From: an uncultured Candidatus Saccharibacteria bacterium
GTDB taxonomy: Bacteria; Patescibacteriota; UBA1384; 2-12-FULL-50-11
DNA: 63,239 nucleotides
Reading direction: 5' to 3'
NCBI GenBank assembly: GCA_964358205.1
Contig: CAYHNZ010000002.1
Location: 1 to 63,239, forward strand
The notes under the pieces were generated by a model. The model worked only from the letters and a program-made list of their open reading frames with translations, made no database searches and was not told the DNA's origin. This document shows positions 35,715 to 44,064 of the stretch, one piece after another. How positions within the stretch are numbered: the stretch's first letter is position 1; each line of letters begins with the position of its first letter. The position numbers and the translations under genes are program-made.

Positions 35715-38700
35715 TCAGCTACACCCCCCCGTAGTTGAGCCGCAGGACAAGCAGGTGTAGCAGGTGCCGGTTTTGAAGGTCAGTGAGCCACAGCTTGGGC
35801 AGGGCGGCGCGTCGGTTTGTTGCTGTTTTCGCGTTGGAATTGTTTCGTTCTCCTCAATTGGTGGCTCAAGTGGTTGGGCGAGAGGTTCTGGGGTGGCGGC
35901 CATATCACCGTTGGTCGGTTCGGGCAACTTTGTTGGTGCGGGGATAGCGCTGAAATCGAGTTGGGCTTGGGCGCTGGAAGCGTCGCCGTCGGCCTTGATC
36001 CCCAGCTCCACTTGCTCCTCGGGCGTTAAGAACTTGAGACCGAGGTAGCGAGCAATGTAGTCAATGATCGATTTGGCAATGCGGATCTGCGGGTTGGTGG
36101 TAAAGCCGTACGGCTCAAAGCGACTGTTGGCGAATTGGCGAACAATCATCGCCAGCGGGACGCCGTATTGCAGGCCGATGGAAATAGATTTGGCAAAAGC
36201 GTCCATCAAACCCGAGATAGTACTGCCCTGCTTGGCCATGGTGACGAAAATCTCGCCCGGCTGACCGTCTTCGTACAAGCCGACGGTGATGAAACCTTTG
36301 TGGCCGGAAATAAGGAATTTGTGAGTAATTGAGCGGCGCTCATCAGCCAAACGACGACGCTTGGGCGCGTAAACAACTTTTTCCACAATTCTTTCGACTA
36401 CCTCGGTCTCGTTCCCAGTTTCGTCCTTTTTAGTGTTGAGCGGTTGAGACAGTTTGGAGCCGTCGCGGTACAAGGCCAGCGCTTTCAGCCCGAGCTTCCA
36501 AGATTGAAGGTAGACTTCCTCAACATCCTCAACCGTCGCCTCGTTGGGCATATTAATAGTTTTAGAGATAGCCCCAGAGATGAATGGCTGAACGGCGGCC
36601 ATCATTCGAACATGGGCCAGTGGAGCGATGAATCGTGTCCCAGTTGGTCCACAACGGTTGGCACAGTCAAAGACCGCCAAATGTTCGTCTTTAAGATGTG
36701 GCGCGCCTTCCAAGGTTTGGGTACCGCAGACAATGGTGTTTGATTGGTTAATTTCTTCCTGGCTAAAGCCGAGCCGACCAAGCAGGGAAAAACTTGGCTG
36801 TAGCTCTTCGGTTTCGGTAATGGTTAGACGACTGAATATTTCCGGTCCCAAGACCGTGCGGTTGAAAGAAAAACTGATATCGAACGAGCTCGATAGAGTT
36901 GACTCGACTTTGTCGATTTCGTCGGTGGTCAGACCTTTGGCAATTAAGGTGGTCCGATTAATCGGCGAACTTTCGACGAATCGGCCAACACCGACGGCGA
37001 AGTCGATCATCTCTCCTTGTTGCTCGAGGGTGTAGCCGAGGTTGCTTAAGGCCTGTTTGACAGCGTTGTTAACGATCTTCATCGAGCCGCCGCCGGCTAA
37101 CTTTTTGAACTTGACCAAAGCAAAGTCCGGTTCAACACCTGTCGTGTCACAGTCCATCAAAAGCCCAATAGTGCCAGTTGGGGCAATTACACTCGCCTGA
37201 CTGTTGCGGTAGCCGAACTGCTCACCTAACGCCACTGCCTCGTCCCAGTCTTGGCGGGCGCCGGCTAATAAGTCGGTCGGACAATCAGTATTGCTAATGG
37301 CGTAGGCGGCTTGGCGATGCATCTTCATGACATTCAGCATCGGGGCGCGATTTTTGACGAAGCCTTCAAATGCGCCCTTAATGGCAGCCATTTCGGCCGA
37401 AGTTTTGTAGGCATGCCCGGTCATAATCGCCGATAATGCGCCAGCGATCGCCAGGGCTTCCGGCGAGTCGTAAGGGATACCTTTGAGCATCAGTAGGGTG
37501 CCAAGATTAGCAAAACCCAATCCGAGCGGTCGGTAGTCGTGACTGTTTTTGGTGATTGCTTCGGTTGGATAGCTCGACAAATCAACCTCGATTTCTTGGG
37601 CGATAAACATAATTTTGCAGGCGTGACGATAACTCTCGACATCAAAATTGCCTTTGTCATCGGCGAACTTGACGAGATTAATAGATGCCAAATTACATGC
37701 AGAATTATCTAGGTGGGTGTACTCGGCGCATGGATTTGAAGCGTTAATACGGCCGGTATTCGGCACGGTGTGCCATTTATTGGCGGTGGTGTCAAACTGC
37801 ACTCCAGGATCAGCACACTGCCAGGCGGCGTTAGCAATCTGATCCATTAATTCTTTGGCGCGGTAAGTTTTGTGTGGCTCGCCGTTAGAAACATAGCGAG
37901 TCGTCCACTCGCCGTCGTTAGCAACCGCCTCCATGAATTCGTCGGTAATGCGGACGGAATTATTTGAGTTCTGGCCGGACACGGTGTGGTAGGCCTCACC
38001 GTTGAAGTCCGACGAATAGCCAGCGGCAATCAAGGCCATCACTTTCTTCTCCTCGTTGACCTTCCAGTTAATAAAATCTTCAATTTCTGGGTGCGACATA
38101 TCAACCACCACCATCTTGGCGGCTCGACGAGTGGTGCCACCAGACTTGACGGCGTCAGCGCCACGATCAAACACCCTCAAAAAGCTCATCATACCGCTCG
38201 AAGTACCGCCGCCTGATAGTCGCTCATAGCGGCTACGAAGTTTGGAAAAGTTAGCGCCGGCTCCGGAGCCAAATTTGAAAATTCTGGATTCGGTTTTGAG
38301 TAAATTAAATATGCCGTCAAGCGAGTCCTCCACCGCCAAAATAAAACAGGCCGAGCACTGGGGGTTGCGGTAAGAATCCTTAGTTTCCAAAACTTTCTCT
38401 TGCTCGAAGTCCCAATAAAAACTTCCGCCCGAGCCGGCGATCTTATATTGATGATACAAACCGCAGTTGAACCACACCGGCGAGTTAAAAGCCGCTTTTT
38501 GGTTGACTAAAATATGGGTTAGCTCATCTTCGTAGCTAACTCGGTCTTCAGGTGAGGCAAAATAGCCGAATTTTTCACCGAAATCGGCAATAGTATGGGC
38601 AATCCGATAAACGGCCTGTTTGAGCGACGTCTCTCTCCCCTGCCCGCCGTGCCCGACAGTGCCTGTTGTGGTAGGCTGGCCTGTAGGCGATGGCAGGCGG

Positions 38701-39014
38701 GCCTCTTTGGTGGGGACGCCGGCCTTGCGCAAGTATTTATAAGCTAAAATGTCAGTTGCCAGTTGGGTCCAAGTGGTGGGTACCTCGACATCGGTAATTT
38801 GGGAGATGATATTGCCTTTTTCATCGCTAATGGTGGTGGTTCGTTTGTCCCATTCGACGGTATCAAAAACATTTTCGCCGACTTTGGTGTAACGGCGAGC
38901 AACTTTGAGGCCAAGTTTCTTGGTCGAATTATTCTTTTCTGGCAATTCGGCCGAAATTTCAACGGGCTTTAAGGCAATCTCGCTTAATCGATCATTTCGG
39001 TCTTTCTTGGCCAT
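35715..39014 (-). CDS. nrdJ: Class II (adenosylcobalamin-dependent) ribonucleotide reductase with a C-terminal zinc ribbon
   Basis: 1099 aa with the NPCAE and PTGT(I/L)G blocks of RNR. The tail is CPSCGSLTFKTGTCYTCLSCGS. A B12 adenosyltransferase lies adjacent. Confidence 0.92.
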   Translation of the reverse strand: MAKKDRNDRLSEIALKPVEISAELPEKNNSTKKLGLKVARRYTKVGENVFDTVEWDKRTTTISDEKGNIISQITDVEVPTTWTQLATDILAYKYLRKAGVPTKEARLPSPTGQPTTTGTVGHGGQGRETSLKQAVYRIAHTIADFGEKFGYFASPEDRVSYEDELTHILVNQKAAFNSPVWFNCGLYHQYKIAGSGGSFYWDFEQEKVLETKDSYRNPQCSACFILAVEDSLDGIFNLLKTESRIFKFGSGAGANFSKLRSRYERLSGGGTSSGMMSFLRVFDRGADAVKSGGTTRRAAKMVVVDMSHPEIEDFINWKVNEEKKVMALIAAGYSSDFNGEAYHTVSGQNSNNSVRITDEFMEAVANDGEWTTRYVSNGEPHKTYRAKELMDQIANAAWQCADPGVQFDTTANKWHTVPNTGRINASNPCAEYTHLDNSACNLASINLVKFADDKGNFDVESYRHACKIMFIAQEIEVDLSSYPTEAITKNSHDYRPLGLGFANLGTLLMLKGIPYDSPEALAIAGALSAIMTGHAYKTSAEMAAIKGAFEGFVKNRAPMLNVMKMHRQAAYAISNTDCPTDLLAGARQDWDEAVALGEQFGYRNSQASVIAPTGTIGLLMDCDTTGVEPDFALVKFKKLAGGGSMKIVNNAVKQALSNLGYTLEQQGEMIDFAVGVGRFVESSPINRTTLIAKGLTTDEIDKVESTLSSSFDISFSFNRTVLGPEIFSRLTITETEELQPSFSLLGRLGFSQEEINQSNTIVCGTQTLEGAPHLKDEHLAVFDCANRCGPTGTRFIAPLAHVRMMAAVQPFISGAISKTINMPNEATVEDVEEVYLQSWKLGLKALALYRDGSKLSQPLNTKKDETGNETEVVERIVEKVVYAPKRRRLADERRSITHKFLISGHKGFITVGLYEDGQPGEIFVTMAKQGSTISGLMDAFAKSISIGLQYGVPLAMIVRQFANSRFEPYGFTTNPQIRIAKSIIDYIARYLGLKFLTPEEQVELGIKADGDASSAQAQLDFSAIPAPTKLPEPTNGDMAATPEPLAQPLEPPIEENETIPTRKQQQTDAPPCPSCGSLTFKTGTCYTCLSCGSTTGGCS

Positions 39015-39184: not shown

Positions 39185-39247
39185 AAAGTCTGAAGTCTCA
39201 AGGCTAAAGTCTGAATTAAGTGATAAGGACTAAGTGGCAAGCTAATA
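39185..39247. repeat. Heptanucleotide array (9 units)
   Basis: AAAGTCT GAAGTCT CAAGGCT AAAGTCT GAATTAA GTGATAA GGACTAA GTGGCAA GCTAATA. Confidence 0.85.
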
Positions 39248-39340: not shown

Positions 39341-39351
39341 CGGTAATTAAT

Positions 39352-39390
39352 ATAAAAAATCCCCCTCTCTGCCGAAGCTTTGAGGGGGAG
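39352..39390 (-). terminator. Intrinsic terminator (minus strand)
   Basis: CCCCCTC/GAGGGGG stem followed by ATTTTTTAT on the minus strand. Confidence 0.8.
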
Positions 39391-39592
39391 GTTTACTGCC
39401 TTTAAACCTTGTGAGGCAAACGAACTCACTTCGGTCGAGGTCAACAGGACCACGCGCTGGGTACGATACCCAGGGCGCTTTCTCGCTGTTCAATCTCCAA
39501 GAAGCCCGCGAGATGACTTCAGGTTGAGTTAAATTTAGCACTAGGGTGCCAGATTGTCTATACTTATCGTCCGAAAAATTAGCTCTATTATC

Positions 39593-39760
39593 TACTTCAG
39601 ACTTTAGCCTTGAGACTTCAGACTTAGTAGAAAATTATTGCCTTAATTTTCTACGGATGAAAGAAGGTACATCGAGCTCGTCTTCGTCTGTACCTCCATC
39701 TTTGATGTCACGACTGCGACCCTTAGTGACAAAAGCATTGTCGGCTGTTTCGGTCTCGAC
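39593..39760 (-). repeat. Copy of the ftsZ 3' end (last 42 codons, stop and 3' UTR), fused to the Nudix gene
   Basis: Offset by 731 nt from 40324-40491. 39620-39712 is identical. 39713-39760 differs at 13 of 48 positions, all synonymous. Confidence 0.95.
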
Positions 39761-40267
39761 CGTTTCGAGCCACGCTTGAACCATCTCTTCACCGTTTTTA
39801 AATGCCATTCTCTCGGGCAACTCATTATAGGAAAACCATCGCAATTCTTCGATGTCATCGCCTGGCGTTAAAACACCCCCGATCACCTCGGCAATAAAAC
39901 AGATATTCAGGGTTTTCTCGCCGGTGGTTCCGTAACTATCCATGAAAAATCCGAGCATATCCCCCAGCTCAACAGACAGTCCGGTTTCTTCTTTTGCCTC
40001 TCTCACCGCACCGTCTTCTGGTTTTTCACCCAAATTTAAGAAGCCGCCGATTACATCCCACCTTCCCTTGGCAGGCTCAATCCTTCTTTTACCTAATAAA
40101 ACTCTATTCCCGTCAGTTATAAGAGTACTTGCTGTGGGCTTAGAATTTAGATAAACAACAGAGTTGCAGTTTGAGCACGCATATCTTTCTGGTTCGCCCT
40201 GGTGGTCGTATTGGATACTACAGTTAGGACAATATTTATAATCCATGTTGGTATGATAGTAATTCAT
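39635..40267 (-). CDS. NudC-like Nudix hydrolase (N-terminal zinc ribbon) carrying the FtsZ C-terminal linker and peptide
   Basis: CPNC...CSNC ribbon and Nudix box GGFLNLGEKPEDGAVREAKEETGL. The last 42 aa ([10 protein letters not shown]...[15 protein letters not shown]) are identical to the FtsZ C-terminus. Confidence 0.85.
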   Translation of the reverse strand: MNYYHTNMDYKYCPNCSIQYDHQGEPERYACSNCNSVVYLNSKPTASTLITDGNRVLLGKRRIEPAKGRWDVIGGFLNLGEKPEDGAVREAKEETGLSVELGDMLGFFMDSYGTTGEKTLNICFIAEVIGGVLTPGDDIEELRWFSYNELPERMAFKNGEEMVQAWLETVETETADNAFVTKGRSRDIKDGGTDEDELDVPSFIRRKLRQ

Positions 40268-40323
40268 TGCCTAGCCAATGAATGGTTCTCTGTTTGAAAA
40301 CTTGATTCTTGTGACTTATTATT

Positions 40324-40491
40324 TACTTCAGACTTTAGCCTTGCGACTTTAGACTTAGTAGAAAATTATTGCCTTAATTTTCTACGGATGAAAGAAGGTA
40401 CATCGAGCTCGTCTTCGTCTGTACCTCCATCTTTGATGTCACGGGAACGGCCTTTGGTCACAAAGGCGTTGTCGGCTGTTTCAGTTTCAAC
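40324..40491 (-). repeat. ftsZ-resident copy of the duplicated 3' end
   Basis: See 39593-39760. Confidence 0.95.
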
Positions 40492-41592
40492 TGGAAAAGA
40501 TGGTTGTGGTTGGATGGGTGTTTGGTGACTAAAAAATGGAATGTTTGAGGCGAAAGGCGCTTGAGGTGCGCCGAGAGTAGCACCAAAACCTACCGGCTCT
40601 TCTGAACCAAATCGTGATCTTGCCTTTGGAACTGGTTTAGATATTTCATTTTCAAAACCAGTCGCGATAACCGTGACTTTAATCTCGCCCGACATCGAAT
40701 CATCGACAGTGGCGCCGAAAATAACATTGGCTTCGGGATCGGCCGCTTCAGTGATAGCCTTAGACACCTCCTCAACTTCATACATAGTCATATCAGGTCC
40801 GCCGGTGATGTTATAAAGAATGCCCCGCGCCCCATCGATTGATAGCTCAAGCAGAGGCGAGTCAATCGCCTGACGAGCCGATTCAATCGCTCCATTTTCA
40901 CCAGCCGCCAGACCGATACCCATTAAAGCCGATCCGGCATCTTTCATAATTGTTCGAACGTCAGCAAAGTCAACATTAATAATAGCCGGTACGACGATAA
41001 TTTCAGAAATTCCCTGAACGCCTTGGCGTAGGATATCGTCAACAATACCAAAGGCGTCGCTCATCGAAGTTTTCTTGTCGATGACCTGCAATAGGCGGTC
41101 GTTGGGAATTGTAATTAATGTATCGACCTTCTCCCGGAGTTCTTCGATACCGAGTTCAGCGATTTTTTTGCGACGAAGACCTTCAAAACTAAACGGTTTA
41201 GTAACAACACCGACAGTCAAAGCACCGAGTTCTTTGGCAATCTGGGCGATCAACGGTGCTGCACCAGTACCAGTACCACCGCCAGCGCCACAAGTGACAA
41301 AAACCATATTAGCCCCCTTAAGCACTTCGTAAATCTCGTCCTTGTTTTCCTCTGCTGACTTACGCCCAACCTCCATATCGGCCCCCGACCCTAATCCTTG
41401 GGTAGTTTCCTTGCCGATTTGAACTTTAATGGGCGCTGGATTACCCATTAACGCCTGCGCATCAGTATTGATAGCGATAAACTCGACGCCACGAACTCTA
41501 GCGGCGATCATTCGGGCGACGGCGTTGCCGCCAGCACCGCCGATACCGCAGACTTTAATACTCGCGAACGTGTCTAAAGTTTCCTTATTCAT
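40366..41592 (-). CDS. ftsZ: Cell division protein FtsZ
   Basis: Tubulin signature [17 protein letters not shown], and the conserved C-terminal peptide DVPSFIRR. Confidence 0.97.
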
Positions 41593-41625: not shown

Positions 41626-42861
41626 TTAATTACTAAAATTTCGTAGGATCCCACGAAATCGGTCAAATACCCCCCCAAATTTTCCGAAATCCAGTCTCCT
41701 ATGTCCATCGTTGGTCTGACCCTCTTCTACGCCCCACATAACTAGCCCAACGGCGCAAGCGTAAATCGGATCGTCAAGCTTGTCAAGCATGCCCGAAAAT
41801 TTGGCGGTGGGAAAACCGACCGTTGCTGGTAAACGAAGCTCGGTTCTGGCTAGTTCGGTTAGACCCTCGATGTCTGATCCGCCACCAGTAAAGATCGCTC
41901 CGGCTGGTAATAAACCATCTTTTCCAACCTTCTTTAGCTCCTCTTTGATCAGATGAAAAATCTCGGCAACGCGAGCTTCAATAATTTCACAAATTTGCCT
42001 TCGAGAAACCTTTTCGTCCTCGGCCGGATCAAGCGACGACAAATTGATTGTTTCCGACTCGCGAATTTTGTCCGGTAATACCGACCCATATTTGTTTTTT
42101 ATCACTTCGGCCACATCAAGGTTGGTTCGCAGACCAATGGCGATATCATTGGTGATGTGCATCGACCCAACTGGCAAAGTGGCGCAATAAATTAGTTCTG
42201 TTTCTTCAAAAACGGCGATGTCTGTCGTTGTCGCGCCTAGGTCGATTAAAATTACCCCGGAATCGCGCTGTTTCTTGGTTGTTAGCGCTCGGGCGGTCGC
42301 TAGCGGTGAGTAGACTAAACCGTCGATTTGGATTCCAGCTTGTTCGACAGCTTTGACTAAATTGCGCAAGGCGGCCGATGAGGCGCTAATAATTAAGGAG
42401 TCAACTTCCAAACGGATTCCGTTCATGCCGATTGGATCACGAATTTCGTCTTGGCCGTCGACGGTAAAATGATGTGGAAAGGTGTGAATCAGCTCTCGGT
42501 TTTGCGGCATGGCGACGGTTTTGGCGGCATCAATCACCCGAGATACATCTTCGGCTTGAATCTCACCGTTCGGGCGAGCGACGGCGATGACGCCCTTGGC
42601 TGGTTGGGCTAAAATATGGCTACCGTTGATTGAGACGAAAGCGTGGGTTAAGGGGAATCCGCACATTCGCTCCGCTTCTTCCAGGGCTTGTGACAGGGCA
42701 CTGACAGTATCTTCGATATCAACGATCATCCCCCGTTTCATACCGCTATGGGCGACCGAAGTTACACCGACAATCGAGGTGACGCCGTCAACGACATTAC
42801 CAACACAAACGGCAATCTTCGAGGAGCCGATGTCTATTCCTGCGACCAGCGGATCACGCAC
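41626..42861 (-). CDS. ftsA: Cell division protein FtsA
   Basis: Actin-fold motifs GIDIGSSKIAV and DLGATTTDIAVF. Proposed GTG start at 42861 after AAAGGA. The upstream part of the listed ORF is heptanucleotide-array sequence. Confidence 0.88.
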   Translation of the reverse strand: MRDPLVAGIDIGSSKIAVCVGNVVDGVTSIVGVTSVAHSGMKRGMIVDIEDTVSALSQALEEAERMCGFPLTHAFVSINGSHILAQPAKGVIAVARPNGEIQAEDVSRVIDAAKTVAMPQNRELIHTFPHHFTVDGQDEIRDPIGMNGIRLEVDSLIISASSAALRNLVKAVEQAGIQIDGLVYSPLATARALTTKKQRDSGVILIDLGATTTDIAVFEETELIYCATLPVGSMHITNDIAIGLRTNLDVAEVIKNKYGSVLPDKIRESETINLSSLDPAEDEKVSRRQICEIIEARVAEIFHLIKEELKKVGKDGLLPAGAIFTGGGSDIEGLTELARTELRLPATVGFPTAKFSGMLDKLDDPIYACAVGLVMWGVEEGQTNDGHRRLDFGKFGGVFDRFRGILRNFSN

Positions 42862-42881
42862 GACAAATCCTTTCAGGATTT

Positions 42882-42916
42882 GAAGTTGCAAGGCTGAAGT
42901 CTGAAGTCTGAAGTAT
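42882..42916. repeat. Heptanucleotide array (5 units)
   Basis: GAAGTTG CAAGGCT GAAGTCT GAAGTCT GAAGTAT. Confidence 0.85.
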
Positions 42917-43043
42917 GGAGTTGTTATTCCACGACTTACGCACAGCAAAGAATAAGTGGTGGAAACACGACGCGACACAAAACCCATTGAGGAGATTTAG
43001 ATACGTAAGTCGTGTATTCAAAAATCGCGGAGCGACACCACAG

Positions 43044-43078
43044 TTTAGACTTGAGACTTTAGACTTTAGACTTTCGTC
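43044..43078. repeat. Heptanucleotide array (5 units)
   Basis: TTTAGAC TTGAGAC TTTAGAC TTTAGAC TTTCGTC. Confidence 0.85.
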
Positions 43079-44028: not shown

Positions 44029-44064
44029 TAATTTAGACTTTAGCCTTCCGCCTTTAGCCTTGTG

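Follow-up and report, generated by a model that had tools for sequence, protein, structure and literature searches.

How a Nudix hydrolase came to end in the C-terminal tail of the division protein FtsZ is the question raised by a locus of an uncultured Candidatus Saccharibacteria bacterium (GTDB: Patescibacteriota; UBA1384; 2-12-FULL-50-11). The stretch of DNA that was analyzed, hereafter the window, comprises 63,239 nucleotides (nt; contig CAYHNZ010000002.1, positions 1-63,239, forward strand, assembly GCA_964358205.1), and on its minus strand the genes run in the order ybeY, ftsA, ftsZ, a zinc-ribbon Nudix gene (nudix) and a gene for class II ribonucleotide reductase (RNR). The 3′ end of ftsZ is present twice, once in its own place and once fused in frame to nudix. 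The explanation we favor, and hold to be reasonably probable, is that the fusion is a lineage-specific chimeric gene which arose by local recombination and not through a mobile element, was then kept by purifying selection and was later reshaped by gene conversion. Loci designated by L-numbers (L001, L008-L023, L034, L048, L083, L085, L139-L144) are relatives or other assemblies with which the window was compared.

The duplication takes the form of a direct repeat of 175 nt (39586-39760 and 40317-40491), the two copies of which lie 731 nt apart and differ at 16 positions. Through it ftsZ and nudix share their last 42 codons, the stop codon, a hairpin at the stop codon and 49 nt of 3′ untranslated region (UTR), so that the two proteins have their final 42 residues in common. 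Each copy consists of a proximal coding segment (D1 in ftsZ, D2 in nudix), a core and a distal segment (U1 and U2, respectively). At the fusion junction (39760/39761) the Nudix sequence ...AWLET passes directly into VETETADN... of the tail, which according to alignment stands in place of approximately 5-10 non-conserved C-terminal residues of the native enzyme. A preliminary description of this locus had proposed both the duplicated ftsZ end and its in-frame join to the Nudix gene, and both are upheld; its account of the repeat was correct for the 42 codons and stop and slightly short beyond them, as it had allowed for only about 45 nt of UTR.

One alternative is an artefact of assembly, in which the Nudix gene would have been wrongly connected to the ftsZ 3′ end of a variant strain. 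Coverage is low, at ~4-6x, and two scaffolds (L001 and L144) have 100-N gaps within the repeat, one in each copy, both of which could be held to favor such an artefact. These gaps fall exactly within the 93 nt over which the copies are identical, which is the expected behavior of a true short repeat in short-read assembly. Against an artefact stand two independent per-sample assemblies, ERZ1292626 and ERZ1292632, which carry the repeat gap-free (99.9% identical) and span both copies and both junctions. The two gap-free contigs, L142 and L143, cover ftsA, ftsZ, the Nudix fusion and RNR at 99.9% identity to the window. The junction of nudix with D2 is unique sequence present in all five assemblies, and a join that is in frame and placed at the natural end of the Nudix enzyme would be an unlikely accident. 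The exact 210-amino-acid (aa) protein is found on three ENA contigs from separate Hainich groundwater assemblies, and a 203-aa version on an NCBI scaffold of a metagenome-assembled genome. An assembly artefact is therefore hardly credible.

The two copies of the repeat do not diverge evenly. The 93 nt of the core (39620-39712 in the Nudix copy) show no differences, and the adjoining 48 nt (39713-39760) show 13, distributed over 11 of 16 codons and all synonymous, including a serine codon that reads AGT in one copy and TCC in the other; these figures agree exactly with those first reported for the locus. By the Nei-Gojobori method, the proportion of synonymous sites that differ in the recoded flank (pS) is ~0.91, and that of nonsynonymous sites (pN) is 0 outside the serine codon. 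When 10 random substitutions were simulated, the peptide was preserved in none of 200,000 trials. The probability that none of the 26 core codons would differ, were they to change at the rate of the D region, is 7e-14, from which it follows that the core must be much younger than the flank. A tract of perfect identity with a sharp edge beside diverged paralogous sequence is the pattern by which gene conversion is recognized, and here the edge falls at the three-base heterology of the serine codon. Mutagenesis of the type exerted by diversity-generating retroelements was also considered as a source of the differences and was rejected, as only 3 of the 13 involve an A and most are C/T transitions; no reverse transcriptase is present among the called genes.

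The relatives indicate which part of the arrangement came first. More than 100 homologues of the Nudix protein, mostly from Patescibacteria, have 160-175 aa and end 5-10 residues past a conserved 'AW'; the FtsZ tail is found in none of them. Berkelbacteria-like relatives with FtsZ 67-88% identical to that of the window (L008-L023) have the order ybeY-ftsA-ftsZ-RNR, without a Nudix gene. Within the Berkelbacteria-like Patescibacteria, a Nudix gene between ftsZ and class II RNR is found in a sub-clade. Of the Nudix homologues, the four closest (L139, L140, L141 and L083) are 66-73% identical to that of the window, L139 being the nearest at 73%, and their genes lie 31-110 nt 3′ of ftsZ and encode native C-termini; none of these four loci has a duplicated ftsZ 3′ end. 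The position upstream of RNR is seen where the contig reaches far enough, with RNR directly after the Nudix gene in L141 and L083. Since these four relatives have the gene with native ends and without the duplication, the Nudix gene was already in place when the tail was added; the order ftsZ-nudix-RNR is thus that of the sub-clade, and the tail a later addition in the window's lineage only. Window and L140 align colinearly from ftsZ across the spacer into nudix as far as ~20 nt before the junction, after which the ftsZ end reappears. The fusion lineage itself is represented by five near-identical assemblies, all from one aquifer (Hainich groundwater samples).

The interval between ftsZ and RNR behaves among the relatives as a replacement-type variable region of ~0.2-2.7 kb (e.g., L011:6258-6882, L034:3952-6701, L015, L016 and L085), the content of which varies between close relatives and may be a Nudix gene, an unrelated GC-rich segment of 440 nt or an NlpC/P60-like gene (L085). 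The unrelated 440-nt segment is found in L011 where L141 has the Nudix gene, and the FtsZ tail of L011 is one residue removed from that of L139 and L141. The Nudix protein of L141 (523-1080, P0005) carries a different C-terminal extension of ~18 aa (...KRLKKQLELLPGSTADIIPPRYSI) that is unrelated to FtsZ, implying that the C-terminus of this family is evolutionarily labile. In two close relatives, L008 (3101-4438) and L009 (8312-9649), an intein of 446 aa that contains an HNH homing endonuclease (Pfam Intein_splicing, HNH_3 and NUMOD3) splits the class II RNR in frame at residue 429/430; the RNR of the window has no intein.

The preliminary description had read the sharp identical core beside a recoded flank as the signature of site-specific integration, in which a mobile element bearing the Nudix gene would have inserted at the ftsZ 3′ end and brought along a recoded replacement for it. 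The resemblance to duplicated attachment (att) sites is real, and the variable gap between ftsZ and RNR, which extends from ~0.2 to 2.7 kb and holds the 440-nt segment in L011, could be taken to point the same way. In the case of e14, the icd gene continues into the prophage, which thus provides whatever lies distal to the crossover, and the displaced end, icdC, persists as an untranslated fragment beyond a 15-kb element that has its own recombinase (PMC13626634). The present locus is similar to icd with e14 or phage 21 in that the 3′ end of a host gene occurs twice as direct repeats around a piece of DNA, with the copies differing mainly at synonymous sites. It differs in that the insert is a single resident gene without a recombinase, in that the recoded part is proximal instead of distal, in that the second copy is translated within another protein, as predicted from its open reading frame (ORF), and in that relatives have the insert without the repeat. 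This reversed geometry has a further consequence: in both copies the recoded segment lies between the core and the body of its gene, without interruption, and an element that crossed over in the core would already have needed a Nudix-FtsZ-tail fusion.

No link between the unit and a mobile element was found. The 731-bp unit holds only the Nudix ORF, as had been noted in remarking on the absence of an integrase; no recombinase lies in or near it, and its neighbors are ftsA, ftsZ, RNR and housekeeping genes. A scan with the tail alignment detected no tail on viral contigs, tblastn searches of phage and plasmid collections returned only distant Nudix genes of ≤41% identity, and no transfer RNA was found that could serve as an att site. 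The comparison of regions downstream of ftsZ, which was to reveal either empty sites or the insert together with its duplication, instead revealed the Nudix gene alone in L139, L140, L141 and L083 and its absence from L008-L023. Site-specific integration is for these reasons very improbable.

Local recombination, the favored source of the fusion, would have proceeded by copying the ftsZ 3′ end onto that of the resident nudix through an ectopic event, the copied segment extending from the 42 final codons across the stop codon and its hairpin into the 3′ UTR, an array of 7-mers included; the last few native Nudix codons and the Nudix stop would have been replaced. Break repair or template switching may have been anchored in 7-mer arrays already present 3′ of both genes, the other side being closed by an illegitimate join within the nudix coding end. 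There are six such arrays in the window, all intergenic and within ~5 kb of the S21-yqeY-ybeY-ftsA-ftsZ-nudix-RNR cluster, some as inverted pairs, and none elsewhere in the 63 kb. L140 has arrays after both ftsZ and nudix, which implies that homology able to anchor repair or a template switch could have existed beforehand. The array of U2 matches the inverted one at 39186 without a difference, yet departs at 2 of 29 positions from that of U1, which indicates that conversion among the arrays is ongoing; the arrays themselves may be operator, REP-like (repetitive extragenic palindromic) or MITE-end (miniature inverted-repeat transposable element) sequences. Since the duplication, purifying selection has kept the two tails protein-identical, and synonymous changes have accumulated to saturation in the proximal 16 codons. 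Later, gene conversion would have homogenized the distal 93 nt in a tract that ended at the triple-mismatch serine codon.

Chimeric genes formed by partial duplication are well established, as is concerted evolution by gene conversion (e.g., tufA/tufB), and conversion tracts typically stop at heterology. The locus conforms to these precedents in that a segment was copied into a neighboring gene and in that a perfect tract with a sharp edge lies beside diverged sequence. It departs from them in what was captured, which is not a folded domain but a disordered linker with a short linear motif, accompanied by a stop codon, an RNA hairpin and a UTR. The fusion is thus a variant of chimeric gene formation and of short-linear-motif capture.

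Whether the added tail matters to the organism is addressed by the manner in which it has changed. The FtsZ tails of the orthologous pairs L009/L010 and L139/L141 are identical in amino acids with 39-44% of codons different, which argues that the FtsZ tail is normally under strong purifying selection and that silent-only divergence would be the expectation for two functional tails. The objection that the tail evolves too fast to diverge in silent positions only was ruled out by this calibration on closer orthologue pairs. At codons for residues shared with L139/L141, D1 differs from the relatives at 2-3 of 9 and D2 at 6-7 of 9, placing most of the synonymous changes on the Nudix copy. All of these changes are silent, which supports purifying selection acting on the Nudix tail; a suggestion to this effect in the preliminary description thus gains support from the outgroup codon comparison, with no amino-acid change recorded. 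Codon preference does not differ between the two recoded copies.

The same data can be read in another manner, in which the fusion, although real, has no functional consequence: selection on the Nudix tail would have had no part in shaping the 48 recoded nt, which would have been imported ready-made by inter-strain recombination from a diverged, protein-identical ftsZ allele of a related strain, and the tail may do nothing. Protein-identical ftsZ tails with ~40% of codons different do exist among orthologues, as in the two pairs above, so a foreign allele would appear recoded, and D2 is further than D1 from all of the relatives. Such a donor, with identical protein and saturated synonymous sites, is hypothetical, given that the 16-residue D-region peptide of the window occurs in no sampled relative and all differ from it at 6 or more of the 16 residues; even with an import, the fusion ORF has remained open and in frame. 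We regard a neutral, imported tail as unlikely.

Returning to local duplication followed by selection and conversion, several points weigh against it. The silent divergence of D1 from D2 affects 69% of codons, compared to 29-54% when the window is set against the nearest relatives that have the Nudix gene, and sits awkwardly with an origin after their split, unless the rate of change is higher in D2. The junction in its present state shows no microhomology, and we infer the two steps of the history, duplication and then partial conversion, from the pattern that they are meant to explain. The fusion is limited to one lineage, the evidence is that of sequences, and the argument for selection hangs on 16 codons.

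The protein that results from the fusion is predicted to be an intact enzyme with a flexible appendage. It matches the Nudix family (PF00293, 2e-22), and the Nudix box GX5EX7REUXEEXGU is present at G75-L98 (GGFLNLGEKPEDGAVREAKEETGL) and conserved in the alignment of homologues, in which the four cysteines of the zinc ribbon are also invariant. The AlphaFold model has a predicted local distance difference test (pLDDT) score of >90 to about residue 170, indicating a confident Nudix fold, and of <50 for tail residues 183-210, in which residues 205-208 (FIRR) make up a short helix at the terminus; the tail would thus be flexible, as expected of an FtsZ linker and C-terminal peptide, the latter folding upon binding. 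The nearest structures are PDB 3cng, an uncharacterized zinc-ribbon Nudix protein, followed by NudC, the leading matches in sequence as well, with both of which the fusion protein shares a four-cysteine zinc ribbon followed by a Nudix fold. NudC is an NAD+/NADH diphosphatase that also acts in decapping NAD-capped RNA. The structural match to NudC covers the zinc ribbon and Nudix part only, as the fusion protein has no NudC N-terminal domain, and the NudC model NCBIfam NF001299 is matched at 53.4 bits against a cut-off of 158, at positions 99-240 of 263 only. The earlier label of 'NudC-like' is therefore fair for the architecture and does not extend to membership in the family.

The tail closes with D-V-P-x-F-I-R-R, in agreement with the consensus D-[IV]-P-x-F-[LI]-R, and then a variable end of basic character, and is identical to that of the resident FtsZ; the earlier identification of the FtsZ C-terminal peptide holds, with the canonical motif at the extreme C-terminus behind a disordered linker. 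This peptide is a docking motif, with FtsA, ZipA, SepF, MinC and others as ligands. The arrangement is similar to FtsZ in the disordered linker that precedes the motif and in the adjoining ftsA, and unlike FtsZ in that the motif is borne by a Nudix hydrolase and not by a tubulin-like polymer. The fusion is probably functional, and the tail most likely would anchor the enzyme on FtsA at the division ring, or would let it compete there with FtsZ. No other protein with the tail was found: an exhaustive HMMER search of 1.84 billion representatives gave no match beyond a fragment of FtsZ and an artefact of low complexity, every tail match on metagenome contigs with upstream sequence available is an FtsZ end, and a literature search returned no report of an enzyme carrying the FtsZ C-terminal peptide. 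A scan for consensus promoters and terminators found none separating ftsZ, nudix and the tail, making co-transcription of the fusion with ftsA-ftsZ plausible.

The hairpin that was duplicated together with the tail is formed by the RRKL codons of the ftsZ end (RRKL-R-stop) as the 5′ arm and by sequence after the stop codon as the 3′ arm, with a folding energy of -10.3 kcal/mol. Covariation among 18 relatives gives a score of 0.279 versus 0.170±0.022 for shuffled alignments, none of 500 shuffles reaching the observed value and slid controls remaining ≤0.107, so that the hairpin is supported by compensatory changes across the clade. Just 3′ of this conserved hairpin, 47-66 nt past the ftsZ stop, 11 of 27 loci of the clade in which FtsZ ends in R or RQ (the near-identical pair L013/L014 among the 11) have one or two recoded modules of the form '(E/K)IRRKLR(Q)-stop'. 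These score 19-34 against the FtsZ end of their own genome, compared to a background of ≤11, and their terminal residue (Q, R or K) is that of their own genome's FtsZ. Relative to the resident end and to each other they show changes of the synonymous type, including switches between the six-fold codon families of arginine and leucine. The K-ending clade, which is more distant, has none of these modules, L034 excepted, and in the close pair L013/L014 the module looks neutral.

The modules have no start codons and lie in varying frames. They are not independent ORFs, for want of start codons, nor do they belong to one ORF with ftsZ; a single frameshift or readthrough to account for all of them fails for L020, L034 and L048, and the conserved RNA structure does not cover them. 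Possible explanations are recoding, allelic replacement that left earlier ftsZ ends behind in displaced positions, or a binding motif with a sequence that parallels the coding constraint. The second of these would lend some support to the import of a foreign allele discussed above, since recoded extra ends would then be former ones. The modules show that the ftsZ end has been duplicated repeatedly in the clade, the fusion in the window being the most elaborate instance. A more far-reaching proposal, that in this clade the FtsZ C-terminal module would be portable, under selection and employed beyond the ftsZ ORF, is quite unlikely.

Features of the locus in the window and, for the extra FtsZ-end modules, in the relatives (relatives given as locus:position)
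Feature	Position	Strand	Remarks
ftsZ	40366-41592	-	408 aa, complete; Pfam Tubulin and FtsZ_C
ftsA	41626-42987	-	Pfam FtsA, SHS2_FTSA; adjoins ftsZ
Class II (B12-dependent) RNR	35715-39014	-	Pfam; in the wider clade the conserved gene 3′ of ftsZ (synteny in L008-L023, L048)
Zinc-ribbon Nudix ORF	39635-40267	-	210 aa
Native part of Nudix gene	39761-40267	-	Pfam NUDIX; Nudix box intact
FtsZ-derived tail, in frame on Nudix	39635-39760	-	42 codons and stop
Repeat copy 1, native ftsZ 3′ end	40317-40491	-	D1, identical core and U1
D1	40444-40491	-	16 recoded codons; part of copy 1
Identical core, copy 1	40351-40443	-	26 codons including stop, and 15 nt of UTR
U1	40317-40350	-	distal part of copy 1
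Repeat copy 2, Nudix 3′ end	39586-39760	-	D2, identical core and U2
D2	39713-39760	-	13 synonymous differences from D1
Identical core, copy 2	39620-39712	-	93 nt
U2	39586-39619	-	3 mismatches to U1
Hairpin straddling ftsZ stop codon	40358-40385	-	inverted repeat; arms GTAGAAAATTA and TAATTTTCTAC, loop AGGCAA
Second copy of stop-codon hairpin	39627-39654	-	within repeat copy 2; duplicated with the tail
7-mer tandem array, distal end of copy 2	39595-39625	-	AAGTCTG/AAGTCTC/AAGGCTA/AAGTCTG; partner in copy 1 at 40326-40356
Further 7-mer array	39186-39209	+	units AAGTCTN/AAGGCTN
Further 7-mer array	42890-42913	+	units AAGTCTN/AAGGCTN
Further 7-mer array	43050-43073	-	units AAGTCTN/AAGGCTN
Further 7-mer array	44038-44061	-	units AAGTCTN/AAGGCTN
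Extra FtsZ-end module	L020:6231-6278		
Extra FtsZ-end module	L021:6312-6362		
Extra FtsZ-end module	L022:6243-6289		
Extra FtsZ-end module	L023:6249-6343		
Extra FtsZ-end module	L085:4109-4155		
Extra FtsZ-end module	L034:3952-4007		
Extra FtsZ-end module	L008:1430-1495		
Extra FtsZ-end module	L013:6213-6265		

The remaining features of the locus require little comment. The FtsZ of the window passes the equivalog model NCBIfam TIGR00065 (418 bits, cut-off 295). The true start of ftsA is probably near 42891, and the gene is annotated as 421 aa in L001. The Nudix ORF has a second ATG at 40246 which agrees in position with the starts of homologues and would yield 203 aa. Between the Nudix tail and RNR there is a candidate small RNA gene of ~170 nt on the minus strand (~39350-39560 of the window), which combines a promoter-like site, TAGACA-17-TAAATT plus TG, with a strong intrinsic terminator (CCTCCCCCTC...GAGAGGGGG, then a T-run), is flanked by inverted 7-mer arrays and matches no Rfam family. 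Known RNA families were found neither in the window, nor in its 38.9-40.5 kb section at E ≤ 1, nor in the loci of six relatives.

In terms of method, the locus implies that an identical core together with a recoded flank is not diagnostic of site-specific integration, and it offers a clean, small-scale example of partial duplication and gene conversion building a chimeric gene. Should the modules of the relatives be translated, whether by stop readthrough, by frameshifting at the A-rich RRK codons or by reinitiation, the clade would possess an undescribed recoding site in ftsZ, and its tail peptides directed at FtsA would form a family that includes the Nudix fusion. The FtsZ C-terminal peptide is a hub for the recruitment of partners to the bacterial division ring, and the host belongs to an uncultivated lineage of reduced genomes with a barely studied division machinery. 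If the favored account is true, the fusion would be a natural experiment in the rewiring of protein localization by motif capture.

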